From assembly GCA_019057475.1 (NCBI GenBank), contig DXJO01000041.1:7284-71283 (forward strand): a DNA stretch of 64,000 nt, given 5' to 3'. The notes below the pieces were generated by a model. It did no database searches. It was not told the DNA's origin and was given only the letters and a program-made list of their open reading frames with translations. Every line of letters begins with the position of its first letter. Position 1 is the stretch's first letter. Positions 5,161-56,830 of this stretch are shown here, piece by piece. The translations under genes and the position numbers were made by a program. The stretch is from Candidatus Thorarchaeota archaeon (lineage in GTDB: Archaea > Asgardarchaeota > Thorarchaeia > Thorarchaeales > Thorarchaeaceae).

Positions 5161-5536
5161 GGACTTCTACGAGGTATGTCCGTGAACGGAATCCGTATTG
5201 GTCAATTTCGATTTCGTCAATCTCATTTAGATAAAGAAAAATGGACCATCTTTTCGAAAAAAAATAACATCAAAGGATTCATTAACTAGTGTAGTGACTA
5301 CTCTATTGAGATAACATAGACCATGGGTGGTGACTGCAGGATTGAACTCTGATAGTCCTTTACCGATATCCAAGCAAAGGAGTCCTGCATATCCAATCCT
5401 AACTAGGATTCGAGCAAGTCAAGTGTTAGCTATTGATTCTACATCTAATCCAATCAATACCCTTTGGAATCGCAATTGGAGTGGAAGAGTAAAGACTCGC
5501 AATCCACAAAATCACATAACTAGGAGTGTTTCATCT

Positions 5537-8500
5537 ATGTGCAAGAGAATTTGGAAAAGGGATTTTGCAGCAGCGTTCATCCTTCTGACGTTCATTCTGG
5601 GTCTGTCGATGTTTATATCACTAGCAGTAATGCAGGATGACATTGCGCATCTATCTATGCCTGTTGTCCACAGAGGGCCGACAAGGAAGATGACAACCGC
5701 CTATATCACCCATGGTCCAATTGTGATAGACAGTGATAATAACTTTACAGCCACAGCGTTGGCTAAAGGATGGCCTGGTCTTGGTTCGCCTGGAGATCCC
5801 TTCATCATAAGGAATTATTCGATCGACCTTGGGGGTGCGATTGGTCATTGCATCAACATCAGCAACACTCGTGTCAGCTTCATCATCAGAAACTGCAGTC
5901 TAACTGGTGCCAATGTATCGACATTTCTTGTAGATAGTGCTGGCGTCTTTCTGAAAAATGTCACCAATGGTGAAATAGTCAATAACATCTGCACGAATGA
6001 CTGGTATGCAATCTATCTAACGAACTCTACTGGAAACACTATTGCCAACAACACCTGCTCATACAATCTCGACAGGGGGATATGTTTGGAACAGGCTTCC
6101 AATTTCAACATTATTAAGAACAACACCTGCAACAGCAATACCGAATATGGCATCTCCCTCTATCAAAGTGACTATAACGAGATGATCAACAACACCTGCT
6201 CCGATAACATAAACGATGGCATCTATGTCTACTATTCGGATTACACTCTCCTTATCAACAACACCTGCTACTCGAACACTCAGCATGGTATCAACCTGTA
6301 TTTCGCCTGTTACTATAGCGAGATAATCAACAACACCTGCTCCGATAACACCTATGGAATCTATGTCTACGCTTCACGGTACAATCTCTTTACCAACAAC
6401 ACCTGCAAGACAAATGATTATGGTATTGTCTTTGACTTTCATTCGGAATATAACGAGGTAATCAACAACACCTGCTCCGATAACATAGAAGATGGCATCC
6501 TTGTTTTCGAAGGTTCAGATTACAATCTCCTTGCCAATAACACCTGCTCCGATAACAGCAAAGGTATCACTGTTTCGAGGGGTCCTTTTGTCGGAAGTTC
6601 ATCCCACAATCTCCTTGTCAACAACATCTGCGAGAGAAATGGTGTTGGTATTCGCCTCTTAGGTGATTCATCTGATGATAGGTCACTATATAACGAGATA
6701 ATCAATAACACCTGCTCCGATAACATAGACGATGGCATCTATGTCATATGGTCGAATTACACTCTTATTGCTAACAACACCTGCGAGAGAAATAGTGATG
6801 GTATTGTCCTTTGGCTTGGCTCGGACCATAACGATATAATCAACAACACCTGCTCCGTTAACAGCTTGTATGGAATCTATGTCTACGCTTCACGGTACAA
6901 TCTCCTTGCCAACAACAACTGCTCCGATAACAGCTATGGCATCTCTCTCGACGGTTCCTACAATCTCTTATTCAATAACACCTGCTCCGATAACGACTAT
7001 GGCATCGTAGTCTGCGGTTCCTACAATCGTTTATTCAATAACACCTGCTCCGATAACGACATGCATGATCCCGATTCAGGCTTTGGCATCTTACTTTATT
7101 CTATTTCAAATTACAATCTCCTTGCCAACAACACCTGTGAGAGAAATGATCATGGTATTGGTCTCGTATCATATTTATATTCTCCAGATCATAACGAGAT
7201 AATCAATAACACCTGCTCCGATAACATGAAAGGTGGCATCTATCTCGACGGTCCAAGTTACAATCTCCTTGCCAATAACACATGTGAGAGAAATGACTAT
7301 GGCATTTACTTCGGATCTCTTTCAGAATTTAACGAGATAATCAACAACACCTGCTCCGATAACACCTATGGCATCTATCTCGACGGTGCGGATCACAATC
7401 TCCTTGCCAATAACACATGTGAGAGAAATGATTATGGTATTGGCCTTGTATCTTCCTTAACTTGGTCAAATGATAACACACTCGTGAACAACACCTGTTC
7501 ATGGAATACATTTTGTGGAATACTCCTCAACGTTAATACTCACCATAACGTGGTCACTAACTGTACCTGCAATTACAACGGTGAATTCGGAATCATGCTG
7601 GCTGGGTCAGATCATAACAACATCACCAGCAATACCTGTAATGGGAATCTTGAAGGCATTCATATCAGTGACTCGGATTCGAACATCATCGCGAACAACA
7701 CAGTCTGCCACAACACTGGTCCAGGAATACGCCTACTCTCAACCTCGTTGAGCAACACCGTCCAATGGAATATTCTCATGAACAACTCTTACAATGTCTG
7801 GAACGACCACTCAAGCAATGTGATTGACTACAACTACTACTCAGACTATGATGGTTACGATAACGACGGAAATGGCATAGGTGATGTTCCTTATCTGCAC
7901 GATGGCTCAGCAAACTCCGAAGACACTCACCCGTATATGTTTCCTGGTGGTTATCTGTACATCACTTGGACCGAGGCGATTACAGATCAATTTACTGAGT
8001 ATATGGAATCTTGGCAATATGATATAGATGTGATCGTGAAGACAAATGTTTACTTATGGTGGATCAACGACACAGCCCACTTCTCAGTCGATCCCACTGG
8101 ACTAATCACCAACAAGACCCCTTTGGTGGTTGGCACCTATGGAGTTATGATATATGTCAATGACACTGAAGGTCATGTGCTGCGAGGCGCATTCACCCTG
8201 GTAGTGTATCCTGCAGGGGCTCCAGAGTGGGTTCAAGCACCCACTGACCAGACTATAGAGTTTGGTGCCACCTTCCAGTACGACCTTGATGCGGTTGCTC
8301 CTTCAGGAATTGACTTCTGGCAGATTAATGATACTGCCAGGTTTCATATTGATCAGACTGGATTGATAACAAATGCCACGGTTCTGATTGTGGGTACATA
8401 CCATCTTGAAGTCATAGTCAATGACACTTTGGGTCAAGTGCTGATAGGAGCATTCACCCTGGTGGTGGATCCTGCAGCGCCTCCAGAGTGGGTTCAAGAA

Positions 8501-9445
8501 CCCACTGACAAGACCATAGAATTCGGTGCAACCTTCCAGTATGACCTTGATGTGGTTGATACTTCAGAAATTGACCTCTGGCTGATTAACGATACTGTCA
8601 GGTTTCATATTGATCAGACTGGATTGATAACAAATGCGACGGTTTTGATGGTAGGTGTATACTATCTTGAAGTCATGGTCAATGACACTTTGGGGCATGT
8701 GCAGACTGCTGAGTTTGCTGTGATAATACAGGACACTACAGCCCCAACTTGGGATGTTACACCAACAAACCAAGTAATCGAATATGGTAGTCTGTTTAGT
8801 TATGACCTTGATGCATCAGATCTGTCAAGCATCCATCACTGGTGGTTGAATGACACCACAAGCTTCGCTATTGATAGCAATGGTGTTATTACAAATGTGA
8901 CTACTTTGGCAATTGGTGTTCATGGTTTACAGGTCTGGGTGAATGACACTATTGGTAACATCCAAACTGCAGCATTTTCAATCTCTGTTGAAGATACAAC
9001 CGATCCAGTGATTACAGCGATTCCAGAAGACATCGAATTTGAAGAAGGTGAGACTGGATACAGTATCACTTGGCAGTTCCATGATCTTGATCCATCAACT
9101 TACACAATCTATCTGAATGGAGAAATCCTACTAACAGGTCAATGGAATTCCAGCAGTGAAGTATTCATCGTTGTTGTTGATGGACTAGCTACAGGATCGC
9201 ATAACTTCACCATAGTCGTGACCGACGGTTCTGGAAATCCTGCTATGGATGAAGTCACAGTAACAGTGACAGCGGTAACAACGACTCCTACAACAACCAC
9301 CACAACTACAACGACTACCTTATCGACGGAACCTGATGGCACGTTAATGGGTATAATGCTGACTGGCGTTGGTGGGGCGGCCATCGCCATAACCATTGTA
9401 ATAATAAGCCTCAAAAAGCGAAGAAGACAACCAAGACAAGAATAG
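5537..9445 (+). CDS. Giant secreted/surface protein: signal/TM, ~20 parallel beta-helix (PbH1-type) repeats, 5 tandem Ig/cadherin-like domains, Thr-rich stalk, C-terminal TM anchor with basic tail
   Basis: Track ORF starts at GTG 5327. ATG 5537 ('MCKRIWKRDFAAAFILLTFILGLSMFISLAV') gives a proper signal/TM start. The block 'NNTCSDN...GIY' recurs ~20 times with ~23-aa period. Five ~87-aa repeats 'PEWVQxPTDxTIEFGATFQYDLD...'. A 'TTTPTTTTTTTTTT' linker, then 'LMGIMLTGVGGAAIAITIVIISLKKRRRQPRQE'. Many N-x-S/T sequons. Confidence 0.75.
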   Translation: MCKRIWKRDFAAAFILLTFILGLSMFISLAVMQDDIAHLSMPVVHRGPTRKMTTAYITHGPIVIDSDNNFTATALAKGWPGLGSPGDPFIIRNYSIDLGGAIGHCINISNTRVSFIIRNCSLTGANVSTFLVDSAGVFLKNVTNGEIVNNICTNDWYAIYLTNSTGNTIANNTCSYNLDRGICLEQASNFNIIKNNTCNSNTEYGISLYQSDYNEMINNTCSDNINDGIYVYYSDYTLLINNTCYSNTQHGINLYFACYYSEIINNTCSDNTYGIYVYASRYNLFTNNTCKTNDYGIVFDFHSEYNEVINNTCSDNIEDGILVFEGSDYNLLANNTCSDNSKGITVSRGPFVGSSSHNLLVNNICERNGVGIRLLGDSSDDRSLYNEIINNTCSDNIDDGIYVIWSNYTLIANNTCERNSDGIVLWLGSDHNDIINNTCSVNSLYGIYVYASRYNLLANNNCSDNSYGISLDGSYNLLFNNTCSDNDYGIVVCGSYNRLFNNTCSDNDMHDPDSGFGILLYSISNYNLLANNTCERNDHGIGLVSYLYSPDHNEIINNTCSDNMKGGIYLDGPSYNLLANNTCERNDYGIYFGSLSEFNEIINNTCSDNTYGIYLDGADHNLLANNTCERNDYGIGLVSSLTWSNDNTLVNNTCSWNTFCGILLNVNTHHNVVTNCTCNYNGEFGIMLAGSDHNNITSNTCNGNLEGIHISDSDSNIIANNTVCHNTGPGIRLLSTSLSNTVQWNILMNNSYNVWNDHSSNVIDYNYYSDYDGYDNDGNGIGDVPYLHDGSANSEDTHPYMFPGGYLYITWTEAITDQFTEYMESWQYDIDVIVKTNVYLWWINDTAHFSVDPTGLITNKTPLVVGTYGVMIYVNDTEGHVLRGAFTLVVYPAGAPEWVQAPTDQTIEFGATFQYDLDAVAPSGIDFWQINDTARFHIDQTGLITNATVLIVGTYHLEVIVNDTLGQVLIGAFTLVVDPAAPPEWVQEPTDKTIEFGATFQYDLDVVDTSEIDLWLINDTVRFHIDQTGLITNATVLMVGVYYLEVMVNDTLGHVQTAEFAVIIQDTTAPTWDVTPTNQVIEYGSLFSYDLDASDLSSIHHWWLNDTTSFAIDSNGVITNVTTLAIGVHGLQVWVNDTIGNIQTAAFSISVEDTTDPVITAIPEDIEFEEGETGYSITWQFHDLDPSTYTIYLNGEILLTGQWNSSSEVFIVVVDGLATGSHNFTIVVTDGSGNPAMDEVTVTVTAVTTTPTTTTTTTTTTLSTEPDGTLMGIMLTGVGGAAIAITIVIISLKKRRRQPRQE
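6050..7500 (+). repeat. Nucleotide-level periodic repeats (~69-72 bp) encoding the beta-helix array inside the surface-protein gene
   Basis: The string 'atcaacaacacctgctccgataac' and close variants recur many times. Confidence 0.8.
7960..9250 (+). repeat. Five tandem ~261-bp in-frame repeats (Ig-like domains) inside the surface-protein gene
   Basis: 'ccagagtgggttcaag' recurs at 8222 and 8483. Adjacent units are ~85-90% identical at nucleotide level. Confidence 0.8.
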
Positions 9446-13428: not shown

Positions 13429-14262
13429 ATGGTTTGTACCAGAAACTTAAATAGGGCAAACCAAGATATCCAACTTGGAAACGCAGTAGAAAGCGAGGCA
13501 GTCAATTTGGGAAACATCAATACAGTCTTCGAAAACGAAACCGACACTCTGAAGGACATTGTCCTTACTAAGGAGGGCAAGACGCCTCAGAAAGAGGTCG
13601 AATTCGTCTATGACAAGCAGAAATGCGATGAACTTGCGGAGCCTGTAAGGTTTCAGATCGTCCAGGTGCTAAGGCAGGGCATTGATGATACTCAAACGAC
13701 CGAGGATTTCAATGAGGAAACCAATGAGAGAATCATCCGACAGAAAATGGTGAAACGCAACACCATGTCAGTTGTCGAAATTGTTAAGGCATCAACCCAG
13801 TCTGACTGCTGTGAAGTCATTACGAAGAATCAACTGTATCACCACCTCCCCAAACTGATTGAAAGCGGTTATGTCATCAAATACGGCACAGTCACAACGG
13901 GTAAACGAACCACAGATTACTACCGTCGTACGGCCAAGGGATTCATGCTGCTTGGAGCGGACCCATCAGCCGATGAGGATCATATCAGGCGCAAGATTTC
14001 TGAGGGGCGAGAGAAGATTGTAAGCATATTTGATCTCAATATCTCCCCAGAGAGTAGCAATGAGCTTTCAGAGTTGTGGGTGAAGAGCACTCAATTGCAG
14101 ATGGAGTATCGCGTGAAGATTGCCAAGATGATTCGAGGCGATGTGGCTGATTCGGAAGTATTGGAACTTTTTGAGTTGATGTTGAACATCTACTCAATGG
14201 GCTCGGATGAGTATGTGCAGATTCAGAGAAGGATGCAGGAGATACTATTCTCGGACACCTAG
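13429..14262 (+). CDS. Putative winged-helix (ArsR/MarR-like) transcriptional regulator with extended C-terminal domain
   Basis: 277 aa. 'LAEPVRFQIVQVLRQG' resembles an HTH recognition region. The rest is uncharacterised. Confidence 0.35.
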   Translation: MVCTRNLNRANQDIQLGNAVESEAVNLGNINTVFENETDTLKDIVLTKEGKTPQKEVEFVYDKQKCDELAEPVRFQIVQVLRQGIDDTQTTEDFNEETNERIIRQKMVKRNTMSVVEIVKASTQSDCCEVITKNQLYHHLPKLIESGYVIKYGTVTTGKRTTDYYRRTAKGFMLLGADPSADEDHIRRKISEGREKIVSIFDLNISPESSNELSELWVKSTQLQMEYRVKIAKMIRGDVADSEVLELFELMLNIYSMGSDEYVQIQRRMQEILFSDT

Positions 14263-14353: not shown

Positions 14354-14590
14354 CTATCTAGAAGCACAGATGTTAGTCTGCGTTTCGCCCACGCCTTCAA
14401 CTGTTTTTATTTTGTCCACAACGAAGTTACTCATCGCGTCATTGTCCGTGAACTCAGCATGAATTATCAAGTCCCAGGCGCCGAACAGGATGTAGGATTC
14501 CACAACTTCTGGCATGGCCTTGAACTTTTCTAGAATAGCCCTATTGTCGCCGCCTATTATTTTTATCAGAATGAATGCTGCAACCGTCAT
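14354..14590 (-). CDS. Stand-alone Lrp/AsnC C-terminal (RAM) ligand-binding domain protein
   Basis: 78 aa. 'PEVVESYILFGAWDLIIHAEFTDNDAMSNFVVDKIKTVEGV' is a typical RAM-domain betaalphabetabetaalphabeta sequence. Confidence 0.65.
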   Translation of the reverse strand: MTVAAFILIKIIGGDNRAILEKFKAMPEVVESYILFGAWDLIIHAEFTDNDAMSNFVVDKIKTVEGVGETQTNICASR

Positions 14591-14905: not shown

Positions 14906-15280
14906 TCAGATCAATCCCTTGAAACGAAGCGCAGATCTTGCTAGGTCAATAACAGCCAACTCGGGGATGGACTCAGGAGTGGCCCAACCCAGCAGCCATG
15001 TAGTCCGATCGATAGATGCCATCAGGAAATGACCTTGATTGTTCTCAGCTGTTGCCACATAGGAATCGGAAGAAGAGCTTATCCTGCGGTAGGTGACCCC
15101 ATTGACGTTCACTGTATCAGCCGCATTCTTGGGGGCCTGTGCTAGGTCTGAAACATCGTTCACTAGATTCCAGTTACCAGTCTGCCAGATTATTATTGAT
15201 TCCTTGCATACTGCAAACCGCTGCATGCGGGGATTGCTGGAGTAGAGCTTTGCCCACTCATCCTCAATGATTGACCCCAT
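14906..15280 (-). CDS. Profilin-like small alpha/beta protein (Asgard-type profilin candidate; roadblock/LC7 fold not excluded)
   Basis: 124 aa. N-terminal helix with 'EWAKLY' (compare profilin 'SWQTYV'), then 'IIIWQTGNW' (compare profilin 'SVWAQS'), and a C-terminal amphipathic helix. It is a paralogue of the next gene. Confidence 0.4.
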   Translation of the reverse strand: MGSIIEDEWAKLYSSNPRMQRFAVCKESIIIWQTGNWNLVNDVSDLAQAPKNAADTVNVNGVTYRRISSSSDSYVATAENNQGHFLMASIDRTTWLLGWATPESIPELAVIDLARSALRFKGLI

Positions 15281-15379
15281 GACACTACCACCGAAACTGA
15301 TTCACAGTGGACCTTCGAGCCGTGGTGTAGGGGAGCCCATATAGATAGCCCTCGATCCCTGCGCTTCAGCTGTTGCTAA

Positions 15380-15787
15380 TCATATTTTACCTTTAAGAGA
15401 TTTGGCAGCCCGATCTACGTCGACGTAGATTCCATCGGGTGCGGCGTCTTTCGCAGCCCAAGCAACTACCCATTTGTCACCTTCAATCTTGGCTAACACC
15501 AGGGTTCCATTGCCACCGGTGTTTCTGGCCACGAGACTTTCTGGACTCGTTCTTAATGTGCTGTACTTCACTTCATTTTGTATCACGCTAGCAGCTCTAC
15601 TGGTGACCGCTGAAACCAAGCTCTTAGCATCTGCGCTGAGATCCCAGTTGTCGCTCTGCCACAATACTTGCCCGCCACCGGTGATCACTCCAAAAGCTTG
15701 AATCATCTTTCCGGAATCGTTGTACGCCTTTGTGTATGAATCCATTACAGGATCGCCCATGATGTTCACCCCGTTGAACATAGTCAA
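15380..15787 (-). CDS. Profilin-like small alpha/beta protein, paralogue of 14906..15280
   Basis: 135 aa. 'MIQAFGVITGGGQVLWQSDNWDL' aligns with profilin 'AAIIGHDGSVWAQSASF', and 'TLVLAKIEGDKWVVAW' with 'ITIKKTGQALVFGIY'. Ends in a C-terminal helix. Confidence 0.4.
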   Translation of the reverse strand: MTMFNGVNIMGDPVMDSYTKAYNDSGKMIQAFGVITGGGQVLWQSDNWDLSADAKSLVSAVTSRAASVIQNEVKYSTLRTSPESLVARNTGGNGTLVLAKIEGDKWVVAWAAKDAAPDGIYVDVDRAAKSLKGKI

Positions 15788-15906
15788 ACGGTCTTCGAGA
15801 AACTCAAGAAGCTATTTCCCATATAAGGAAATTCTTGATGGCCTTCAGTCTAATCTCCTAGAACACACTCTTATGGCGGACGATGTGCTCAACTTACATG
15901 CCCAAG

Positions 15907-16209
15907 ATGGCAATTGAAGACACAGCAGACGGCGTTTTATTGAGAGTGATTGTGAAACCAAGATCTAGAGCTACATCATTCATTGCAGAGATAGGCGTGG
16001 AGTACGTCATTCTGAACCTTAGAGCTCCAGCAAGAGAAGGAAAGGCCAACACAGAGCTACTGAAACGGGTCGCAAAATCGTTGAAACTATCCACCGCGGA
16101 TGTCATCTTGGTCAGCGGCTCCAAATCACGCGATAAAACGCTCCTGATACGGGGGGTAATGGCCGACCAAGTTCTTGGTATATTGCAGGCCGTCATAAAC
16201 AATAAATAA
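15907..16209 (+). CDS. DUF167 (YggU/UPF0235) family protein
   Basis: 'LLRVIVKPRSRATSFIAEIGVEYVILNLRAPAREGKANTELLKRVAKSLKLSTADVILVSGSKSRDKTLLIRG' is the characteristic DUF167 sequence. Start set to the third in-frame ATG. Confidence 0.7.
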   Translation: MAIEDTADGVLLRVIVKPRSRATSFIAEIGVEYVILNLRAPAREGKANTELLKRVAKSLKLSTADVILVSGSKSRDKTLLIRGVMADQVLGILQAVINNK

Positions 16210-18567: not shown

Positions 18568-19953
18568 TTACCGCTTGTACGTGTCTTCAAGAGCCTTATC
18601 CCATTCGTCGTGTTCTTCTTCGGTCTTGCGCCTTTTCTTGGCCTTCTTGCGCGCCCTTCGAGATTTGACCGCGGCTTTCTTTTTCTTCTTCAGCTCTTCG
18701 CGACGTTTCTTGATTGCTTCCTTCTCTTCCTTGGTCAGCTCCACTACTTCTACCTCTTCCCGCTGTGAGAACCACCCTATTATCACAGAAACAAAGACGA
18801 AAAGCAATGAGATAGGCAGAAGGAAGATTAGTATGAACTCTAGTTCGAGAAGCTCTGCACTGTATTCAACTCCTGGAGGGAGATTGAGCATAGAAACAAA
18901 CAATGCAGGACTCATCATCAAGAATGAGATAGCCACTACGCCTAAGAAACGCATTGCCGATCCTGTGATGGTCGAGCCAATCACATAACTCTCTGATGGT
19001 GCCGCAGCCTTAGCTGTGAGCTCTTCTCTTGCATTGGGATTGCTCAGGAGTAGATCATTAACAAAGTGTTGGAGACGACGCACATCACTCACGGCATCAA
19101 GATTTTCAAGAGCCTCAGTACTCCCGAACATTTTCCGCTCAATCGCCTCTCTAAGAAATGAGAATGCTGTTGCACCGGAGGCACGGCTCATCGCTGTTGT
19201 CCTGACCTTCTCGCCACGCTCAATAGCATCCTGTTTCCGAGTGGCTTGGCGAAGCGCCAAGAGCTGTGTCTTGAGAGTTTCCTCCCGATCTTCTACCGGC
19301 TTACCTACCGAATGACTATAGATCATCTGATAGCTAAACTCCAGATAGGCGAAGGAAACAAGTGCCAGAATCTGTGGAGAACTCGTGAGAAACGTAGTGA
19401 TATCAGTCGGAAAGATTGTGAAGTTGGGAACCGTCAGACCTCTGAAGGCACCAATAATTAGAATGGATTGAATTGAAAGAAAAGCGCCGCCAGAGAACTT
19501 GTGATCCATTCTTACAAGTGATTGTAGAAACAGGGCAACACCAAGACCTGCTAGCAGGAAGAAGAGGAAGCTGAATGTATTGTCCCAGAGAGACAGCATA
19601 ACACCAATCAGGTCCATTTGGAAGCTCTCGAACACCAGATTGACGTCTGAGATGGGACCATCTACTCCATAGGGCTGCAAATTCCAGAATTTCAGAACCA
19701 GTGTATTGTACAACCAAGCAATCGTTTGGTCTGGTAATTGGCCTCCGAAGATCGCTGCTGTCAGCCCGTTCATTATCAGAACTGATAGGAAGAAAGCAAG
19801 CAATGAGAGAAGATGAAATACCGTAACCACAAAGTCGTATGGAGCACTCCAACCCCATGCGCTTGACTCATCCAAGGCCAAATAGACTAGGTAAGCCATG
19901 TATGCGAAAGTGGCAGTTGAGAGGATGCGCAAAATCCAAGTGACCATCTTCAA
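18568..19953 (-). CDS. Polytopic membrane protein with a highly basic Lys/Arg/Glu-rich C-terminal tail; function unknown
   Basis: 461 aa, many TM helices. Tail 'KEEKEAIKKRREELKKKKKAAVKSRRARKKAKKRRKTEEEHDEWDKALEDTYKR'. Confidence 0.35.
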   Translation of the reverse strand: MKMVTWILRILSTATFAYMAYLVYLALDESSAWGWSAPYDFVVTVFHLLSLLAFFLSVLIMNGLTAAIFGGQLPDQTIAWLYNTLVLKFWNLQPYGVDGPISDVNLVFESFQMDLIGVMLSLWDNTFSFLFFLLAGLGVALFLQSLVRMDHKFSGGAFLSIQSILIIGAFRGLTVPNFTIFPTDITTFLTSSPQILALVSFAYLEFSYQMIYSHSVGKPVEDREETLKTQLLALRQATRKQDAIERGEKVRTTAMSRASGATAFSFLREAIERKMFGSTEALENLDAVSDVRRLQHFVNDLLLSNPNAREELTAKAAAPSESYVIGSTITGSAMRFLGVVAISFLMMSPALFVSMLNLPPGVEYSAELLELEFILIFLLPISLLFVFVSVIIGWFSQREEVEVVELTKEEKEAIKKRREELKKKKKAAVKSRRARKKAKKRRKTEEEHDEWDKALEDTYKR

Positions 19954-21272
19954 AACATCGCAACCCCCATTCGCTTTGCCTCTTCATACTGTTTGATGAT
20001 GGTAGGCAAGAAATCTGCAGGCCCCACGTTGACCACGGCTATTCTAAAACGTGCCAATGCGCGTGAAATCTTGCTACGCCGCTCCCAGAGCTCCTCCGAA
20101 ACAGCCTCGGCAAGTACTTTCTCCACTGGACCAAACTGACCGACTGGAACCTCAAACCATGGACCGAACGGACTAATCACCATAGCCTTGTGACCGTTTG
20201 CAACCACAGTCTTCATGGCATTCAGTAGGGGGGCTGGACTCTCTTCAAGATCAGTCAGCCAGATGAATAATGAACGTTTTCTTGTCTGTCGGGTGACATA
20301 CTCAACTGCGGACTCGTAATCACTCCAACCACTTGGCTCAACCATCGCAAGAGATTCCAACACGCCATACATATGATTGGGATGAGTACTAGGTGGAACA
20401 TACGAATGCACGACATCTGAGAAGACACACGTGCCGACAAGATCTCTTCTCTCCATCCCCATATGCGTTAGAAGAACTGCCGCGCGAATTGCATACTCGA
20501 GCTTTGTGTTCTCGGGATAGCCATTGCCCATACTTCCGCTAGAATCAACCATGCACACAACTTGGATGTTCTTCTCCATCTCGAACTGCTTGATGACCAT
20601 GTCACCACGTTTTGCACTGCTCTTCCAATCAATCAACCTGAAGGGGTCTCCGGGCACATACTGTCGAAAGCCCGCAAAGTCAGTCCCCATACCAACAGTC
20701 TTTGTCCTATGAGATCCAAACATGAGACCAAGCTGCCTTTGCTTACCCATCGCCTCAAGACGCCTAACATCCTTCCAAGTGGGATAAACGAGAACTTCTG
20801 TTTTCTCCTTCAATACACGCTTGAAGTAATGCATCCCCAGGCGATCACGCATAATCACCTCGGTGGGACCTAGGAAGTAGCGCCCTCGCATCCGTGCCTG
20901 CAAGATGTACGAGAAAGTCATGCTGCTCCCCGGCTCTATTCGGGAAGCGATGAAATTCTCGCCTATAGCTAGAATCCAAGTTTCTGGGTAGCGGTCCCAG
21001 ACTTCAATGAAATCGAAATGCCGCCTTGACGTGTTCTTGATAGTGACTCGCACACGCAGGAAATCCCCCGAGAATACTTTCACTTTATCAATCTGGCGAT
21101 CTACCTCGATACCGGCAATGTTGGCGGCCAACGCAAAGAAGGGGAGTGTCACGACAAGCCCTACTATGAGGTAGACTCCCAACAGGGCCAAGTAGGCGTT
21201 GACGAAAACGAATCCACTCGTAAGGAGCAGGACGCCTCCGAACAGCACTACAAAGCCTCTTTGCGTGATCAC
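19950..21272 (-). CDS. DUF58 (vWA-like) protein, MoxR-associated
   Basis: N-terminal TM pair. 'VVCMVDSSGSMGNG' is a MIDAS-like vWA motif. Sits directly after a MoxR ATPase gene, the classic arrangement. Confidence 0.75.
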   Translation of the reverse strand: MITQRGFVVLFGGVLLLTSGFVFVNAYLALLGVYLIVGLVVTLPFFALAANIAGIEVDRQIDKVKVFSGDFLRVRVTIKNTSRRHFDFIEVWDRYPETWILAIGENFIASRIEPGSSMTFSYILQARMRGRYFLGPTEVIMRDRLGMHYFKRVLKEKTEVLVYPTWKDVRRLEAMGKQRQLGLMFGSHRTKTVGMGTDFAGFRQYVPGDPFRLIDWKSSAKRGDMVIKQFEMEKNIQVVCMVDSSGSMGNGYPENTKLEYAIRAAVLLTHMGMERRDLVGTCVFSDVVHSYVPPSTHPNHMYGVLESLAMVEPSGWSDYESAVEYVTRQTRKRSLFIWLTDLEESPAPLLNAMKTVVANGHKAMVISPFGPWFEVPVGQFGPVEKVLAEAVSEELWERRSKISRALARFRIAVVNVGPADFLPTIIKQYEEAKRMGVAMF

Positions 21273-21312
21273 TTCACATCGTCTCCGGCATCATGTACGT
21301 GTTTTCGTTCAT

Positions 21313-22302
21313 CTACCTTGGACAGTCTACTTCACCAAGTATCTTCGAAACGACCCGCTGGACTGTGAGTCCTTCGAGTTCAGCTTCGGGCTTCAGAATC
21401 AACCTATGATTGAGTGTTTGGACGCACAGCTTCCGTACATCTTCAGGCACAACATAATCACGATTTTGCATCGTCGCACGGCTCTTGGACGCGCTCATGA
21501 GCACCAAAGATGCGCGCGGTGAGCCACCAAGCAGTATCTGGGGGTCGTTGCGCGTACGTACAACGATGTCTCGGATGTAGTTGATGATGTCCTCCTCAAG
21601 GAAGACTGTCTTGCAGGTGTTTTGCATTGCAACGATTGTATTAGGGTCAGAAAGCACACGCAAATCAGTGGCCATCCCAATGTGCTTCCGGCGAACAACT
21701 TCAGCCTCTTCAGTATCAGTTGGATAGCCAAGTATTAATCTGAACATGAACCTGTCCAACTGTGCTTCTGGCAGCGGGTACGTGCCCTCCTGTTCTACTG
21801 GGTTTTGAGTTGCGACTATCAAGAAGGGCCTTGGTAGCTTACGCGTAACGCCCTCGATTGAAACCTGTCGCTCTTCCATCACTTCAAGCAACGCACTCTG
21901 CGATTTTGGAGGACAGCGGTTGATCTCATCAGCCAGAACCAGATTCGCGAATACGGGACCCTTGCGGTACCAAAATTCACCTGATTTCTGGTTGAAAACG
22001 TTGCTGCCCAAGAGGTCAGCAGGTAGTGTGTCAACAGTGAGCTGAATTCTCTTGAAAGCACAGCCCAGGATTGAAGCAAAGGTTCTCGCCATGTAGGTCT
22101 TCGCAATACCTGGTACCCCTTCAAGGACCACATGTCCGTTTGACAGGAATGCGACGAGCACATCCGCGAGAATGTCGGTCTTGCCGACTATAACCCGGCT
22201 GCACTCATTGATTATCTCAGTTGTCAAGTCATGGACTTCTTGGATGGTCAGCACCTGGGACACCTCCGCTTGACCTTGGTCGGTTGCATCTTTTGTTGTC
22301 AT
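21313..22302 (-). CDS. MoxR-like AAA+ ATPase
   Basis: Walker A 'LEGVPGIAKT', Walker B 'LLADEINR', sensor 'ATQNP'. About 320 aa, typical of MoxR. Confidence 0.85.
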   Translation of the reverse strand: MTTKDATDQGQAEVSQVLTIQEVHDLTTEIINECSRVIVGKTDILADVLVAFLSNGHVVLEGVPGIAKTYMARTFASILGCAFKRIQLTVDTLPADLLGSNVFNQKSGEFWYRKGPVFANLVLADEINRCPPKSQSALLEVMEERQVSIEGVTRKLPRPFLIVATQNPVEQEGTYPLPEAQLDRFMFRLILGYPTDTEEAEVVRRKHIGMATDLRVLSDPNTIVAMQNTCKTVFLEEDIINYIRDIVVRTRNDPQILLGGSPRASLVLMSASKSRATMQNRDYVVPEDVRKLCVQTLNHRLILKPEAELEGLTVQRVVSKILGEVDCPR

Positions 22303-22320
22303 GCTATTTGTTCCACCTCA

Positions 22321-23712
22321 TTATGTTACAATTAGTAGTTTTTCGATATCGCGCATCCAAAAGAATAGCGACATCATCTCACTTTCTCTGATCTTCATTC
22401 CCGGTTTTGCGGAGATTTCCTCGATTCGTCGGACTGTCTTGAAGAACTTGTCCTCTGTCAACCGGGGGTCTTTGTGTCTAGCCAGAGCCCACATCTTCTT
22501 CGGGTCATATTGGTCCCACATATGCTTCGTCTGTAATCCTCGCCGCATCTTTCTGTATATCATCTTGACTACCCGGGCGTAGTTGCCCTCAGTCCGGTAG
22601 TATGTCATCCGCTCGCTGAAGTAGGTCTGCCCTCTCCGTAGGAAAACGTCGGATACGTTCTTGACTTCGGGTTTCTTAATCTCTGGCAGATACTTCTTGA
22701 TACCAAGAGCGGTCAAAATGGGATATAGTGATGAAACGAAAGGTAAGGCACTCATCCACATTATTCTGCTTAGGAATTGACCGAACCAGAACTCCGCTGA
22801 GTTTGGAGGTACTGCGAGTAGTTGTTCGCAGAAGAGAATTGGCGTTTCAGCGTCACTGAATGAGAGCCAATCCAGAATGTTCATCCCGAACCGCTGATTT
22901 CCAGCAAATTTCTCCAGCATATCATTAGTGAATATGCTGGGGTCACTTACCGCTACAAGCCTGCCTGAACGTCCACCTGTCAAACTGGGAACTTCAAGCA
23001 CGCCCGCAACAGGAAGCCGACCTGCCCATTCGCCGGGGTCCGGATTCGGGTTTGACTGGCTTGTATTAGTTTCACACCAGGACCGTGTTGATGACCACGC
23101 CACAGCTGCAATCGGAGACCCGAGAAGGCATGTTGGACTCAGGGTCGATGCCCAGTTGAGATGCAGGTCGCTCACGCCATTCGTAACGGGATGGCCTACG
23201 AAATCGGTGATAATTGGGAATCTTGGGCTAGTATCGTAGGAGTCTAGATCAAGAAGAAGACCGCGTGTGAAGGAGAGGAATCCATCCACGCCAGCTTCTT
23301 CCAGCCGCGCACCGCCCATGATGTCAAAGAGATACTCATTGAGCCAGTAAAACGAACTGTTTGCAGTCCCAAAATCGTCCGCCACCAGGACACTGCCGCC
23401 ATTTGACAGGTGACCGAATATCGAGAAGACTGTATCTGCACTGAAGTCTCTAACAGGACCCATGATGACCAGCACTGCTGAACCATTGTATCTAGTAACA
23501 ACGCTCATGGAGGACTGTACCGCCAACACTTGATTCCCGTTTTCCTCGATCATGGATCGATATGTGCTGAGTCCATTCCATTCGGTGTTGTAGATTGAGA
23601 AGTCCTGTGTGTAAGTCCCTGAGGCGCCAGTGAGAGTACTGCCGATTAAGAATCCAGCTGGGAGCCAAACTAGAATGAACAACACGATCCAGAGACTCTC
23701 TTTCCAGCCCAT
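22321..23712 (-). CDS. DUF4350-like membrane-anchored protein (MoxR/vWA operon member)
   Basis: N-terminal TM. 'AVLVIMGPVRDFSADTVFSIFGHLSNGGSVLVADD' fits the DUF4350 pattern. Lies in the operon. Confidence 0.45.
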   Translation of the reverse strand: MGWKESLWIVLFILVWLPAGFLIGSTLTGASGTYTQDFSIYNTEWNGLSTYRSMIEENGNQVLAVQSSMSVVTRYNGSAVLVIMGPVRDFSADTVFSIFGHLSNGGSVLVADDFGTANSSFYWLNEYLFDIMGGARLEEAGVDGFLSFTRGLLLDLDSYDTSPRFPIITDFVGHPVTNGVSDLHLNWASTLSPTCLLGSPIAAVAWSSTRSWCETNTSQSNPNPDPGEWAGRLPVAGVLEVPSLTGGRSGRLVAVSDPSIFTNDMLEKFAGNQRFGMNILDWLSFSDAETPILFCEQLLAVPPNSAEFWFGQFLSRIMWMSALPFVSSLYPILTALGIKKYLPEIKKPEVKNVSDVFLRRGQTYFSERMTYYRTEGNYARVVKMIYRKMRRGLQTKHMWDQYDPKKMWALARHKDPRLTEDKFFKTVRRIEEISAKPGMKIRESEMMSLFFWMRDIEKLLIVT

Positions 23713-23729
23713 CTCAGTTCACCTATCAG

Positions 23730-24182
23730 TTACTCAAGCTTTGCCTTCACGCTCGCATCAACACGTGGATACAGATCCGTGAATGTTTTGATTGCGAACT
23801 CATAGCGCTCACGTGTCATCTCGTGATGCGAGAATCGAGCCTCCTCGTAGGTGTGCAGAAAATCTTCGACTGCCGCACCATCGATAGGGAGCTCCTTTAC
23901 CATGCGTTGCATGAACCCGTGTGCTGTTTCGGAGTTGAGTCGTTCTGCGCCCATCTTTGAGCCACACATCTGCTCGAATGTACGGTATGCTAGGGTAATA
24001 GCTGCACCGTACTTTCCCGCGTCTGCCAGCTTCTTTATGTTCCTAAGTTTGCTGGGGATATCCACCCGCTCTGATTCGACAGGGCCTTGAAACATCCCTC
24101 GCACATAGTATAGATAGAGTAGAACAACTATTATCGCGCCAGCTAGAGCGGCGATTGGAAGGATCTGGTCTAGTGTTTGCAT
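23730..24182 (-). CDS. DUF4129-like small membrane protein (partner of transglutaminase-like proteins)
   Basis: 150 aa with an N-terminal TM and an all-helical C-terminal domain. Located between DUF4350 and the TGase-like gene. Confidence 0.4.
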   Translation of the reverse strand: MQTLDQILPIAALAGAIIVVLLYLYYVRGMFQGPVESERVDIPSKLRNIKKLADAGKYGAAITLAYRTFEQMCGSKMGAERLNSETAHGFMQRMVKELPIDGAAVEDFLHTYEEARFSHHEMTRERYEFAIKTFTDLYPRVDASVKAKLE

Positions 24183-24186
24183 CCCA

Positions 24187-27100
24187 TTACCACCGTTTAC
24201 CTTTATGATGATTAAATGATATATTGAGTCTGAAACCCGGCTTGTAGGATTTTAGGAACCGGGTGTATGATCGTCTGTACCGTGCTATGACCAACAATGC
24301 GATGATGCCCTCCACAGAGATTACTAGAATCCACATGATTAACATCATCCCCGCAGGAATCTCACCAGGGCCAGATATATTGACCGTGTACTGGCCCGAG
24401 CGAACATCCGTAGTTTCGGATGACGTAATTATGATGCGGTACGTGAAAGCGCCCTCCTCTGCTGGAACCGTCGCTGTGACCGTGAATGTGCCGTCCGGGC
24501 CAGTCGTGGTCGGATTCGTTGTGGTTGTGAAATTAACTACAATCTCGATGTTGCGGTTGGCTATCGGATCCCCATTTTCGTCGATGAGTAGTCCATTGAA
24601 TGTGAAATTCTGTCCAGGAGCAACCATTGTGAGAGTGCCAGTCATGTCGAAACTAACGTTGTCTGTAAAGATATGCATCCTTTCAGATGTTTCTGCAGAA
24701 GAGGCTAGTACGCCTGTAGTGCCGGAGTACTCAACCCGTAAAGCGTAATAATCAGACGTGTCCCAAGAAACCGGCAGAGTGAATCTGAATCTGTGTTCAC
24801 TGCTGGTATTGATTGCTGCGACGCCTATTGGGGTACTCTCGAGAAGGGTGTCAAGATAGATGTTGACTACTGCCCCCGGTATTGCATTTCCAAGGTAGTC
24901 AGCAAGACTGATGATGAATGAATAGCTCTCTCCGGGCATAATATCTGGGGGGGTTGAAGGGTCAAAGCGCACCTGTAGGGCCGACTGCGTAAACAATGTG
25001 ATGATCCATGTGTCCACATTGCTGGTGACATCATAGTATCCGGGCACATTTGCGAGACTGAGTACATAATTTCCGAAAGAATAAGCGGAAGTATTAGTCC
25101 ATGTTCTGGAAAAATTGCCGTCCGATTGTGAAGTAGTTGTGAGAATACGACTGCCATCAACCAAGATGTCTAATGTAATTCCGGGAGCTGGCCCACCTCC
25201 ATTGGAAACATAGCCAGTCACTATCAAGGATTCACCAATGTTCAGGGCGGTAACTAACTGAACGTTCATGTGCAGTTCGACCGAGTCCCAAATCTCCAGA
25301 CTTTCGGGAGCGGTCTGAGCATTCTCGATTGCAGGCGTAGGTGATGAGAATAGAGCATAAATGTTGCTTGGGCCAAGCGGATATATCCAAGGTATGGAGT
25401 AGTTAACTGAGAAGCTGCCCCCACCGACAGTAGTCGCATTCCTGACCGAGACCCCAGCAAGCATAATATCTACAACATAACCCACCATGGGAGTACCATT
25501 GGCAAATGTCAGGGTGCCAGAAATAGTGACTGAAGCCCCCCTATACACTAAGCTCGGAATTGCATTCGCAGTGAGATTGACAGGAATCTGCTGAACCTGA
25601 ACTGGAATGATAAGCGATTGACCGGAACTGATGTAGGAGTCTGCCGGTGTACAGTTGGCCCACACCTGTAGTATCCCCACGGGTACCGCTTCGGTGATTT
25701 GGACCACAACCCAGAACCGTCCGCTGCCATCAGTGACTAATGACTCTATGAAGAAGTCAACGAAATCAATGCTATGGCGACCCCAGATATCAACGGCGGC
25801 AAAGGCATATGGAGTGCCATTGTCAAGGCTGAGAACACCTGAGATGTTCAAGTTCTCCGAGATGTAGACAGGATTTGGTGTTGCATCAAACGGCACCCAG
25901 ACCAAAGTATAGGCGTCAATATCAATCGGGATTGGTATTGCTGTATGATTGTCTATCCAGTTCACACTCGACAGATATCGCACAGTGACATCGTAGCTGC
26001 CCGGAGTCGTTGATTGAGGAATCGTCCAAGAGCAAGTGAAGGATCCGTCAGATGCGGTGGTGTCATTGTCAACCACTCCCACGCCCACAACAAGCATCTC
26101 TACAATGACGCCTTCAAAGGGCACACTCGACCCGTACTCCAGTGTTCCTGTAACCACCACGGTTTCGGTGAGATGGAAGACTGTGATTCCACCAGTACTA
26201 AATCCAATGAGTGTCGCCCATCGTTGAAGGGTTAATGATTCGTGAGTGGATTCAACACCCTCAATGAGCTGAGTGCCATTATAGATCCCGTAGACCTGAA
26301 CAGAGAGATCCGTGTAGTCATGCATGCCAGAGTAAGGATGACTCGCCTGACCACTCCCATCGGTAGTCACGTTCGTAATCCATGAAATCCCAGTTGAGTT
26401 TTCCCACCATAGCGAAACCACTGCACCGCTAATATTAGCACTATTGTGAGAGAAGTAGAGATGAACAGTGATTGTGACAGTTTCGTTCAGATAGACTGAA
26501 TTGACAAAGGAAACGTCCAGAGTCACAAGGTAGAGCGACAGAGTTACCGTTTCAGTTGCTGATGTGTCACTCTCCACGTACGGGTTCAGGCTTGTGTAGC
26601 TTGCCCACATCTGAATATCTTCTGCATCATCACTGATAGAGAGGTTGTAGAGGAAGCTATAGCCGCCCGTGCTGTTAGTTGTCTTCTGAAACGTGAATGT
26701 TCCAGAGCTGTTTACATAATATATAGTGATGATCTCCCCAGCAAGGGGTGTGCCATCCACAAGAGTCAGATTGCCGGAGAACACGATGACCTCGTCGAGG
26801 AAGTGAAAATCTGAGTCGGGGGTGCCAGTTAGTGTTACCTGGTACAACTGAACCGTTAGAGAAGGCGTAAGAGTTGCTGAAGCGTCGCTCTGAGTTGCTA
26901 TAGTTGAGTTCCACTCAACCCATACTGCGACCGTGCTGGTGGAGTCGCTCAGTGTTAGATTGTAGTAGAAATCGTACCAGCCTGTGGAGTTTGTTGTGGC
27001 GTTGAACAGGTATTGTGTCCCATTGTCCCAGTAGATTTGAATGGTCATGTCTACAAATGGAGACCCATCCGAACCGTTTTGGAGCCTACCCCAGATGTGC

Positions 27101-41060: not shown

Positions 41061-41219
41061 ATGCCAGTAGCAGATATCGAAAAACGCAGACTTGCACAAC
41101 ATTATCTGCTCTACAAATCGGTATGCCGTTATTGCGGAGCTACCAACCCGCTGAAGGCGAAGAAGTGTAGAAAGTGCCATACAAAGGACCTCAGGCCGAA
41201 GAGGCGGTCTAGAAGGTAG
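41061..41219 (+). CDS. rpl40e: Ribosomal protein L40e (eL40)
   Basis: 52-aa ORF, below the track threshold: '[52 protein letters not shown]', a C4 zinc ribbon with a basic tail. Confidence 0.7.
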
Positions 41220-41247
41220 TTCCTCCCGAGTGATGAGCCGGCAGTAT

Positions 41248-41324
41248 GGGCCGGTGATCTAGTTGGCTATGATGCCGCCTTCACACGGCGGAAATCGGGT
41301 GTTCGAGTCACCCCCGGCCCACCA
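41248..41324 (+). tRNA. tRNA-Val (anticodon CAC), CCA encoded
   Basis: Acceptor stem GGGCCGG/CCGGCCC. Anticodon stem ccgcc/ggcgg with loop 'ttCACac'. T-arm 'gggtgttcgagtcaccc'. Ends 'A-CCA'. Confidence 0.75.
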
Positions 41325-41355
41325 CTGACAAGAAATGATAACAAGGGGCGCAACA

Positions 41356-41571
41356 ATGCCAAAGCAAATCTATGACGCAGAAAAGTTCCTCGAGATGACT
41401 GAGAACGCAACAGAGTGTCGCGTGAAGCGAGGCGCAAACCAGGTCACTCTGAAGCTCCGGACTGGTAGGTATCTTTACACGCTTATCGTTGAACCCCAGA
41501 AAGCTGAAGAGATTCTTCAGCAGGTGAAGTGCCAAATCGTAGAGGCTCGCTCCATTTCCGAAGAGAGCTAG
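41356..41571 (+). CDS. rpl38e: Ribosomal protein L38e (eL38)
   Basis: 'KRGANQVTLKLRTGRYLYTLIVEPQKAEEILQQV' aligns with eukaryotic eL38 '[35 protein letters not shown]'. Confidence 0.7.
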   Translation: MPKQIYDAEKFLEMTENATECRVKRGANQVTLKLRTGRYLYTLIVEPQKAEEILQQVKCQIVEARSISEES

Positions 41572-43041: not shown

Positions 43042-43356
43042 GTGACGGAGGGAAAGCCTGACAAAGTAGAGCAGACAGACTTCGGGCCTAGAGATGCAGT
43101 CGTCCTCGTTGGGTCAAAGAATGTGATGTCTTACGTGCTAGCATGTGTGACCCTCTTCAACAAGGGTGCCGAAGAAGTTGTGATTAAGGCCCGGGGGCGG
43201 CTCATTAGCAGAGCTGTTGACGTGGCTGAGATAACCCGTCATAGATTCATCACCGATGTTAAGGTCAAGGACATACAGATAGATACAACCACCGTGCAGA
43301 CTGACAAGGGAAGCGACTTGAACGTTTCCACGATCGATATTACGATCTCCAAATAG
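43042..43356 (+). CDS. albA: Alba (Sso10b) DNA/RNA-binding protein
   Basis: '[38 protein letters not shown]' matches Alba. Confidence 0.8.
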
Positions 43357-56217: not shown

Positions 56218-56392
56218 ATGACTATGTCCTTTTGAAACCTATGGCGCGAGAGTGGCTGGAAACGTGACCAGGTTGGCTGGTTTCATCGTCACGTTTTTAA
56301 GCCAAACCCAGCGACAAGACGAAAGCGTCGAGGGCCCGGAGGCTCCGACTATTGTTCTGTGTTGGTGAAGACTGGTGAACGCAGGTAGACCT

Positions 56393-56635
56393 ATGGAACT
56401 GCTCAAAGAATCAATTGGCGCTCAGGTGCTCGTTGAGATGAAGGGGCGTAAGAAGGTCAAGGGGAAATTGCTTGGTTATGACCAGCATCTGAACCTCATA
56501 CTTGAGAACGCCGAAGAGATAACCTTCGACCCAGAAACCAATACGGAATCTGTTGTGGCTATCGAGAATGTGATTGTGAGAGGAGACAACGTCGTAATCG
56601 TTAGTCCGGCACCCAAGTCAGGTAAGAAGGAGTAG
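56393..56635 (+). CDS. Sm-like archaeal protein (SmAP/LSm)
   Basis: Sm1 'VLVEMKGRKKVKGKLLGYDQHLNLIL' and Sm2 'VIVRGDNVVIV'. Start at ATG 56393; the track uses an upstream GTG. Confidence 0.85.
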   Translation: MELLKESIGAQVLVEMKGRKKVKGKLLGYDQHLNLILENAEEITFDPETNTESVVAIENVIVRGDNVVIVSPAPKSGKKE

Positions 56636-56641
56636 ACTGCT

Positions 56642-56830
56642 ATGGGAAAGGGCACTCCAGCCAAAGGCAAGAAGAATAATCCCCACCACATTCGCTGCAG
56701 AAGATGCGGCAGACGATCCTATCACGTCAGGCACAAGAAGTGCGCAGCCTGCGGCTATGGCGCCTCAGCCAGACTCCGGAAGTTCGCCTGGGCTCACAAG
56801 AACATTCAGGGCACTCGTATTCGGGGTTAA
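56642..56830 (+). CDS. rpl37e: Ribosomal protein L37e
   Basis: '[38 protein letters not shown]' is the C4 zinc finger of L37e. Conserved Sm-L37e gene pair. Confidence 0.9.

Follow-up and report, generated by a model that had tools for sequence, protein, structure and literature searches.

The 64,000-nucleotide stretch of DNA analysed here, referred to as the window, derives from a Candidatus Thorarchaeota archaeon (positions 7,284 to 71,283 of contig DXJO01000041.1, assembly GCA_019057475.1) and carries on its minus strand two adjacent genes, open reading frame B (ORF-B) and, immediately downstream of it, ORF-A, whose products are supported as genuine profilins by their sequence and their predicted fold. 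Our reading, to which we assign a probability of roughly 85%, is that the locus constitutes a conserved two-gene profilin unit of Thorarchaeota comprising a canonical profilin, ORF-B, and a specialised isoform, ORF-A. This reading builds on the paralogy and fold of both proteins, on synteny, and on purifying selection combined with an asymmetric divergence. Asgard profilins, which have been characterised since 2018, are central to the argument that a regulated actin cytoskeleton predates eukaryotes. That Thorarchaeota encode a profilin is not new, a functional profilin as well as gelsolins being reported for them in the literature, and Asgard profilins and their duplications have already been published; the A-type proteins, represented by ORF-A, constitute a new, unannotated member of the known family in a conserved arrangement. 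Experimental work on the Thorarchaeota profilin made use of the B-type only, and the same genome carries a second, divergent profilin immediately downstream, as does almost every Thorarchaeota genome sampled.

ORF-A occupies positions 14906-15280 of the minus strand and encodes, from an ATG, a divergent and fast-evolving profilin paralogue of 124 residues, while ORF-B, the canonical Thorarchaeota profilin, occupies positions 15380-15760 of the same strand and encodes 126 residues from the ATG at 15760. Both proteins align over their full length with 31% identity across ~126 residues (BLASTP, E 3e-20), and are therefore true paralogues. A third profilin copy was not found in the 64-kb window by tblastn. 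The first-pass annotation, which had been made from the DNA letters alone, had placed two adjacent paralogues of ~125-135 residues here. The pair lies exactly where it had been put, but ORF-B most likely measures 126 and not 135 residues. As a mechanical ORF, the latter gene extends from 15380 to 15787 (minus strand) and would yield 135 residues from a TTG at 15787, upstream of which in-frame stops lie close by. The true start is almost certainly the ATG at 15760, since this position is used in 61 of 61 orthologues, a Shine-Dalgarno (SD)-like motif lies ~12 nt upstream of it, and most database relatives of ORF-B are 126 residues long. Concerning the motifs quoted by the same annotation, EWAKLY and DSYTKAY fall within the predicted N-terminal helices and the C-terminal helices are predicted likewise, but the block of ORF-A reads IIWQTGNW and thus departs from the V(L/I)WQ pattern proposed for both proteins. 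In either protein, the WQ(S/T)xNW block lies in the second beta-strand and the loop that follows.

Judged by its sequence, ORF-B is the orthologue of thorProfilin (TFG12995.1, PDB 7pbh). A phmmer comparison with PDB sequences returned 7pbh_A, named 'Profilin', at the top with an E-value of 3e-58, followed by 5zza_P, 5zzb_A, 6yrr_A and 5yed_A; among these, the Odin profilin 5zza was matched at E 2.7e-10, and 6yrr is the profilin of Heimdallarchaeota LC3. Over the common core, which is of the same length in both proteins, 91 of 126 residues (72%) are shared between ORF-B and 7pbh, and both genes reside in the same context, between a DUF167 gene and an A-type gene. More than 130 clusters (90% identity) match ORF-B, most of them with a length of 126 residues, and the named ones stem almost exclusively from Thorarchaeota. 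The score against Pfam Profilin PF00235 amounts to 18.6 bits (E 0.0021) at a gathering score of 25, a precomputed PF00235 match is carried by only some of the B-type orthologues, and NCBIfam provides no match for ORF-B. An AlphaFold2 control model of ORF-B reached a predicted local distance difference test (pLDDT) score of 86 and displays a secondary-structure layout equivalent to that of ORF-A. With this model, Foldseek retrieved 7pbh as the top match at a template modelling (TM) score of 0.83, followed by the Odin and Loki profilins, ranks 1-9 being all profilins.

The protein of PDB entry 7pbh, TFG12995.1, originates from the Thorarchaeota metagenome-assembled genome (MAG) TEKIR_14 (bioRxiv 10.1101/2021.08.06.455371). 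In the corresponding locus (L052), the B gene is identical to residues 20-145 of 7pbh in 126 of 126 positions, and an A-type gene is located just downstream. thorProfilin slows the elongation of rabbit actin, binds polyproline, including a polyproline peptide of VASP, and co-localises with F-actin, as seen in HeLa cells (PMC8410842; bioRxiv 10.1101/2021.08.06.455371). The seven thorProfilin residues involved in polyproline binding, V24, Y28, T29, W53, K139, L141 and I145 (bioRxiv 10.1101/2021.08.06.455371), are all identical in ORF-B, where they correspond to V5, Y9, T10, W34, K120, L122 and I126, and all of them are conserved across the B family.

On the other hand, thorProfilin differs from ORF-B by an N-terminal extension of ~19 residues, which ORF-B lacks and in place of which in-frame stops occur upstream of its start. 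This extension has been studied in two papers (Survery et al. 2021, Inturi et al. 2022). At the TEKIR_14 locus, it lies in the region L052:5468-5535, corresponding to 15761-15826 of the window, with its ATG at L052:5481, ~4 nt past the conserved TATA-like box, and its coding region runs across the SD-like motif. The extension is probably an annotation artefact rather than a part of the native protein, because its ATG is situated just past the TATA-like box, because stops interrupt the equivalent region of the window, and because 61 of 61 orthologues start at the ATG of the 126-residue form. If so, this would affect how the polyproline data of thorProfilin are read, as well as the polyproline and lipid data obtained for the analogous extension of heimProfilin.

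ORF-A has neither a Pfam nor an NCBIfam match. It is nevertheless connected to solved profilins by phmmer comparison with the PDB, which retrieved 7pbh at 1.4e-16, the Odin profilin 5zza at 8.8e-6 and Loki profilin-1 at 1e-3. An exhaustive phmmer search with ORF-A over 1.84 billion representatives yielded 27 matches, of which 13 fell below 1e-10, and a profile search of a 5.8-billion-protein collection returned 75 clusters, all of them 'hypothetical protein' or unnamed and none with a Pfam domain. A profile built from 66 A-family members matched 7pbh at 3.6e-30, 5zza (Odin) at 2.1e-14, 5zzb (Loki profilin-2) at 8.9e-13 and 5yed (Loki profilin-1) at 2.6e-12. Sub-threshold matches to Pfam Profilin occur in 13 of the 66 members, the best at 7.9e-5; among the Pfam families, Profilin is the one matched by the largest number of A-family members, the other matches being scattered and of weak E-values. 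The Pfam gathering threshold marks a detection limit of the Pfam model and not a property of the fold.

The AlphaFold2 model of ORF-A, which was computed from a 99-sequence alignment, is very confident (pLDDT 94.4, predicted TM score 0.88) and exhibits the topology alpha-beta2-alpha-beta5-alpha with seven strands, comprising helices at residues 2-15, 43-52 and 106-120 as well as strands at 19-26, 29-33, 56-59, 62-69, 73-78, 84-89 and 94-100. Foldseek ranks 1-10 for this model are all profilins, with TM scores of 0.68-0.92 for Asgard and 0.75-0.78 for eukaryotic representatives. The best structural matches are Odin profilin and Loki profilin-1 and -2 (5zza, 5yed/5yee, 5zzb), despite a sequence identity of only 20-24%. 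Normalised by query length (TMq), the score amounts to 0.87 for Odin profilin (5zza; 0.90 by target length) at a root-mean-square deviation (RMSD) of 1.4 Å, to 0.90-0.92 for Loki profilin-2 (5zzb) at 1.7-1.9 Å, to 0.91 for the free form of Loki profilin-1 (5yed) at 1.8 Å, and to 0.83 for thorProfilin (7pbh) at 2.6 Å, followed by 0.75-0.78 for the profilins of yeast, Acanthamoeba (IB) and S. pombe at 2.3-2.4 Å. Taking both models together, Asgard profilins reach TM scores of 0.80-0.92 with RMSD values of 1.4-3.0 Å, and eukaryotic profilins are matched at TM ~0.7-0.8. The profilin layout that the first-pass annotation had proposed for both proteins is hence borne out by sequence matches to solved Asgard profilins, by seven-stranded models and by profilins as best Foldseek neighbours; the structure prediction and fold comparison it had recommended, carried out with AlphaFold2 and Foldseek, favour profilin over roadblock for both ORFs.

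That both genes encode roadblock/LC7/MglB-like regulators of small GTPases, which the annotation had named as the main alternative, is a reading to which we give hardly any credence, and at the fold level it was rejected for both genes, with topology, TM and RMSD values and Pfam all against it. Its appeal stems from the core fold that roadblock and profilin have in common (PMC10933270), from roadblock structures that occur lower in both Foldseek lists, and from the JGI/IMG label 'predicted regulator of Ras-like GTPase activity (Roadblock/LC7/MglB family)', by which several B-type orthologues are named. With roadblock proteins such as the Thorarchaeota representative 7f8m or MK-D1 Roadblock3 (9jue), both ORFs share an alpha/beta core and terminal helices on one face. 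However, the roadblock topology is alpha-beta-beta-alpha(long)-beta-beta-beta(-alpha) with five strands and a long central helix through which dimerisation occurs (PMC10933270), whereas profilin is a seven-stranded antiparallel sheet with both terminal helices, N and C, against the same face (Tran et al., PMC10933270). Seven strands are present in both models, and their central helix spans no more than 9-10 residues, that is, the profilin-specific insertion of three strands in place of the long helix. Correspondingly, roadblock proteins match the ORF-A model much more poorly (TMq 0.53-0.67, RMSD 4.5-7.1 Å) than Odin and Loki profilins do (0.87-0.92, 1.4-1.9 Å), and the ORF-B model reaches lower values of 0.57-0.72 against roadblock/MglB, the RMSD being mostly 4-7 Å across both models. 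The Robl_LC7 Pfam family is not matched down to E=10 by either ORF or down to E=1 by the 66 A-family members, the match of 7f8m to the A-family profile is not significant (E 0.066), and no small GTPase gene was detected among 50 long ORFs of the window scanned against Pfam. Moreover, the B orthologue thorProfilin has a solved profilin structure. Regarding the database names, the roadblock label is attached to the B-type proteins P0042, P0062, P0063 and P0098 and to the related Frey/Jordarchaeia-type profilins P0216, P0218 and P0219; judged by the predicted fold, it is a misannotation on the B orthologues.

The conservation of the tandem was assessed by an A-centred census, for which a pattern-plus-tblastn search with seven full-length A-type query sequences was run on a single genome of each GTDB species; it returned 65 loci with A-type relatives, nearly all labelled Thorarchaeota. 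A B-type gene is found immediately upstream on the same strand in 63 of the 65, separated from the A-type gene by a spacer of 42-187 bp (median 85 bp; 62 complete pairs, the window and a duplicate contig among them). Nearly all of these 62 pairs keep ORF-A intact at 120-126 residues and in a fixed position. Conversely, B-centred look-ups on long contigs encountered an A-type gene directly downstream in two of two cases, and, as an independent confirmation, at least nine MAGs carry consecutive NCBI locus tags for the B-type and A-type genes, for example ACFFED_03750/03745 and JSW61_10550/10555. The B-A pair is a conserved unit of Thorarchaeota far beyond chance, because of the 63 paired loci out of 65 together with the low ratios of nonsynonymous to synonymous substitution rates (dN/dS) of both genes.

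Two loci deviate from this arrangement. Locus L064 belongs to a different Asgard lineage and holds a single profilin (P0133), while in L021, from the CSMAG_2458 MAG, a transposase-like ORF (L021:3-983) takes the place of B upstream of the A-type gene; either the ORF was inserted there and B was displaced or destroyed, or an assembly join may explain this. In addition, some A-type genes, among them those at L067:2395-2949 and of P0124, were called with a 60-residue N-terminal extension that begins 14 bp past the B stop (184 residues), and in P0127 (201 residues) and P0138 (114 residues) the A-type N-terminal part is joined to unrelated sequence; these are probably frameshifts or gene-calling artefacts.

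Signals for expression were counted by script as archaeal TATA-like and SD-like motifs, while a scan for sigma-70 promoters and intrinsic terminators was set aside as not meaningful for an archaeon. In the window, the TATA-like box TTATATGGG at 15818-15826 (minus strand), which lies 58-66 nt ahead of the ORF-B ATG, probably serves both genes as promoter, and an SD-like motif, GGGGTGA, is located at 15766-15772 (minus strand), 6-12 nt upstream of the same ATG. The spacer between ORF-B and ORF-A comprises 99 bp (15281-15379, minus strand) and contains an SD-like motif, GGTGGT, ahead of ORF-A at 15287-15292 (minus strand), as well as a TATA-like element, CTATATGGG, at 15336-15344 (minus strand), which is confined to this sub-lineage. 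Across the loci, a TATA-like A/T box is present at ~-61 of B in 45 of 59 cases against 4 of 59 in a control interval, and upstream of A in 4 of 61 cases, with a control interval that likewise gives 4 of 61. SD-like motifs precede B in 53 of 59 loci, at a median position of -12, and A in 54 of 61, and a run of at least five T occurs in only 6 of 61 spacers. Since a conserved TATA-like box is restricted to the region ahead of B and SD-like motifs lie before both genes, this pattern suggests one promoter upstream of B and a bicistronic B-A mRNA, that is, a two-gene operon. Start codons are ATG in all 61 B genes, and TTG in 30, ATG in 27 and GTG in 4 of the 61 A genes; because half of the A orthologues start with TTG, A is probably translated less efficiently than B.

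The two paralogues have evolved at very different rates. Across 58 genomes, pairwise identity averages 48% between A-type and 76% between B-type proteins, and B diverges less than A in 99.9% of the genome pairs, the distances differing by a factor of ~2.7. Among close relatives, dN/dS ranges from 0.06 to 0.14 for A and from 0.04 to 0.10 for B, so that both genes are under purifying selection; at these values, A is no pseudogene and no duplicate under drift. In a neighbour-joining tree based on Kimura distances, which included nine other Asgard profilin-like sequences, B was recovered with a bootstrap of 100%, A with 59% and A+B with 53%, which would fit a duplication that took place at the base of Thorarchaeota.

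The joint A/B alignment comprises 17 columns conserved in both families, for example F22, V24, W32, Q33, N36, W37, L39 and Y64, and further columns conserved in both are G83, P106, D112 and A117. ORF-A thus retains a conserved core of W32, Q33, N36, W37, Y64, G83 and D112 together with the aromatic W9 and a hydrophobic residue at position 120. Conservation in B only applies to 23 columns, such as K65, R70, P73, G83/N84, K91, Y112, D116, K125 and I126, and six columns switch class between the families (A/B: L12/A12, N16/G17, K18/M19, Y74/L76, A78/N80 and L108/G110). Within the 66 sequences of the A family, no variation occurs in eight columns and hardly any in 13 others, and L12, N16, Y74, H84 and L108 are invariant residues specific to A. 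The per-region entropy amounts overall to 1.57 bits for A versus 0.64 bits for B, and A is the more variable protein almost everywhere, except for an N-P-K loop after the N-terminal helix, which A has in common with non-Thorarchaeota Asgard profilins and which B has lost. Furthermore, A is the more acidic of the two, with a median net charge of -5 compared with -1 for B.

Part of this divergence would concern the surface by which profilins contact actin. Comparison of the family profile with human PFN1 (in a sequence identical to 4x1l_A) by hhalign aligned 12 columns only, those of the beta3-beta4 hairpin, with a probability below 1%, ORF-A residues 57-68 corresponding to PFN1 residues 64-75 when the initiator methionine is counted. 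In this weak register, K65 and R70 of B equal PFN1 K69 and R74, and a manual extension along the next strand, guided by the topology, would equate B R79 with PFN1 R88. The residues K69, R74 and R88 are known as actin contacts from the bovine profilin-actin structure, and R88 also binds lipids. The three B residues are conserved at 86% (K65), 97% (R70) and 98% (R79), and their equivalents in A are not conserved, with T replacing R79 in 72% of A sequences. Hence, A appears variable or switched at the putative actin-contact positions, that is, the K69, R74 and R88 equivalents and the first turns of the C-terminal helix, where B is almost invariant. The sub-functionalisation that the first-pass annotation had deduced from the duplication is therefore plausible in view of the asymmetric divergence and the changed putative contact positions, but it is not proven.

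By orthology to thorProfilin, ORF-B most likely serves as the housekeeping actin-monomer regulator, which would bind actin, restrain filament growth and weakly bind polyproline. Other Asgard profilins are known to bind phosphoinositides. ORF-A would have arisen by tandem duplication, probably early in Thorarchaeota; it keeps the profilin fold and core, while its putative actin-facing surface would have changed, and it probably shares a transcript with ORF-B that starts from the promoter of the latter. Most likely, it represents a specialised second isoform with an altered affinity or partner preference, for instance for a different actin-family paralogue. From these data we infer, rather than show, that either protein of this genome binds actin, how the operon is built and in what way ORF-A is specialised. 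With respect to the last, we lean slightly towards an ORF-A that is still an actin-binding isoform with altered properties.

It is a rather unlikely possibility that ORF-A has been neofunctionalised, retaining the profilin fold and losing canonical monomeric actin binding, to act from the same operon as a modulator whose partner would be a different one, for instance an actin-related protein, a proline-rich, nucleator-like ligand or, as an antagonist, the B profilin itself. Such a shift would account for the replacement or variability in A of near-invariant B positions aligned with actin contacts (K65, R70, R79, Y112 and D116), for the invariant residues and the acidity peculiar to A, and for the retention of A under purifying selection in more than 60 genomes. 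Yet the fold and the conserved core of ORF-A are unchanged, the mapping of contacts behind this argument is weak, no alternative partner is encoded beside the pair according to the Pfam scan of the window and the related loci, and the actin-binding Odin and Loki profilins are themselves so distant from ORF-A in sequence that divergence alone does not equate to a loss of actin binding. If ORF-A did have a new partner, the B-A operon would form a two-component module of actin regulation, with a division of labour independent of the eukaryotic isoforms. What probability remains beyond these two readings goes to redundancy and to others. That ORF-A is a redundant or decaying duplicate without a function of its own would agree with the ~2.7-fold faster evolution of ORF-A, the extra variability in nearly all regions, the frequent weak TTG starts and the truncated or fused database copies (P0127, P0138), but is very improbable given an ORF that stays intact in almost all 62 paired loci across very divergent Thorarchaeota, its low dN/dS, its 8 invariant and 13 nearly invariant columns and its very confident fold prediction. 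An A-B heterodimer was considered as well and set aside; nothing supports it.

Several observations weigh against the interpretation of the locus as a canonical profilin paired with a specialised one. Neither ORF attains the Pfam Profilin gathering score, ORF-B remaining at 18.6 of 25 bits and ORF-A giving no match at all. The assignment of actin contacts derives from a 12-column hhalign match with a probability below 1% and its manual extension, not from a structural superposition. Since the faster evolution of A is spread over almost the whole protein and not over one face, simple relaxed constraint is possible, and with the monophyly of A+B at a neighbour-joining bootstrap of only 53%, the timing of the duplication is not firm. 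Moreover, the operon is deduced from sequence features, and the window and its closest relative carry a TATA-like element of their own, CTATATGG, in the spacer, so that an internal promoter is possible in this sub-lineage. Finally, no actin-family gene was found in the 64-kb window, 50 long ORFs having been compared with Pfam and the short intergenic ones inspected by eye; the same search gave no gelsolin, Arp or small GTPase gene.

The surroundings of the pair are conserved as well. A DUF167/YggU gene (15883-16209, plus strand; Pfam DUF167, E 4e-18) adjoins it divergently in the window and in 57 of 59 loci, and also adjoins the single profilin of the non-Thorarchaeota Asgard locus L064 (L064:5540-5842); therefore, the linkage of DUF167 and profilin is older than the duplication. 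An OPT transporter gene lies upstream of the pair on the opposite strand in 53 of 59 loci. Downstream of ORF-A, a small gene for an Lrp/AsnC ligand-binding domain (14354-14590, minus strand; Pfam AsnC_trans_reg, E 3e-15) is found, the AsnC-domain gene being within 3 kb of the pair in 32 loci. Convergent to the pair, a gene at 13429-14262 (plus strand) encodes a 277-residue protein without family assignment, neither Pfam nor NCBIfam providing a match; it occupies the same relative position in 55 of 59 loci, and by eye the middle of the protein looks like a winged-helix DNA-binding domain.

Further away, the window contains a cluster on the minus strand (18568-30006) of genes for a 461-residue membrane protein, a DUF58/VWA protein, a MoxR AAA+ ATPase, DUF4350 and DUF4129 proteins and a 1939-residue protein with a transglutaminase core, the gene order of which recurs on Logan contig L001. 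A 1372-residue protein composed of repeated NosD/right-handed beta-helix units (5327-9445, plus strand) is probably a surface protein. Two abutting large ORFs of 902 and 852 residues (57905-63172, minus strand) are essentially without family assignment, the sole match being a weak one of the 852-residue ORF to a TraG-type P-loop (E 2.5e-5, below the cut-off). Short ORFs at 41061-41571, 43042-43356 and 56375-56830 resemble, by eye, small ribosomal proteins, an Sm-like and an Alba-like protein, and housekeeping genes are represented by a proteasome subunit, FttA/aCPSF1, Pus10, TruD, SepF and a tRNA-Val at 41248-41324.

Compared with the profilins described so far, ORF-A is ~29-31% identical to thorProfilin and has I5, W9, A10, W32, L118, F120 and I124 at the positions of the latter's polyproline residues; within the A family, I5 is conserved at 98%, W9 and W32 at 100% and L or F at position 120 at 90%, whereas the equivalents of K139 and I145 are not conserved. 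The Loki profilins differ from both ORFs in a long 'Loki loop', apparent as insertions of 9-10 residues in the alignments with 5zzb and 5yed, which neither ORF-A nor ORF-B possesses. Lokiarchaeota are said to carry several profilin paralogues, and the literature gave no account of these being arranged as a fixed tandem with probable co-transcription. Likewise, no text on a Thorarchaeota tandem pair or an A-type protein was found, though the supplementary trees of Ponlachantra et al. 2023 and Akil & Robinson 2018 may include an A-type sequence.

With eukaryotic profilins (human PFN1-PFN4, PF00235), both ORFs share the fold, with TM scores of ~0.7-0.8 to the profilins of yeast, Acanthamoeba and S. 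pombe at an identity of 7-18%, but the aromatic polyproline platform is only partly present in ORF-A and ORF-B. In human profilin, the polyproline cleft is formed by W3, Y6, W31, H133, L134 and Y139, which are aromatic and hydrophobic residues from the two terminal helices together with a tryptophan of the sheet. Eukaryotic profilins comprise a conserved housekeeping isoform together with divergent isoforms of altered ligand binding, and this principle would be common to the B/A pair, although the duplication in Thorarchaeota is independent of the eukaryotic ones. The pair lends itself to direct and inexpensive tests of how isoforms specialise in the actin system of a prokaryote, both proteins coming from one locus and a structure being solved for one of them.

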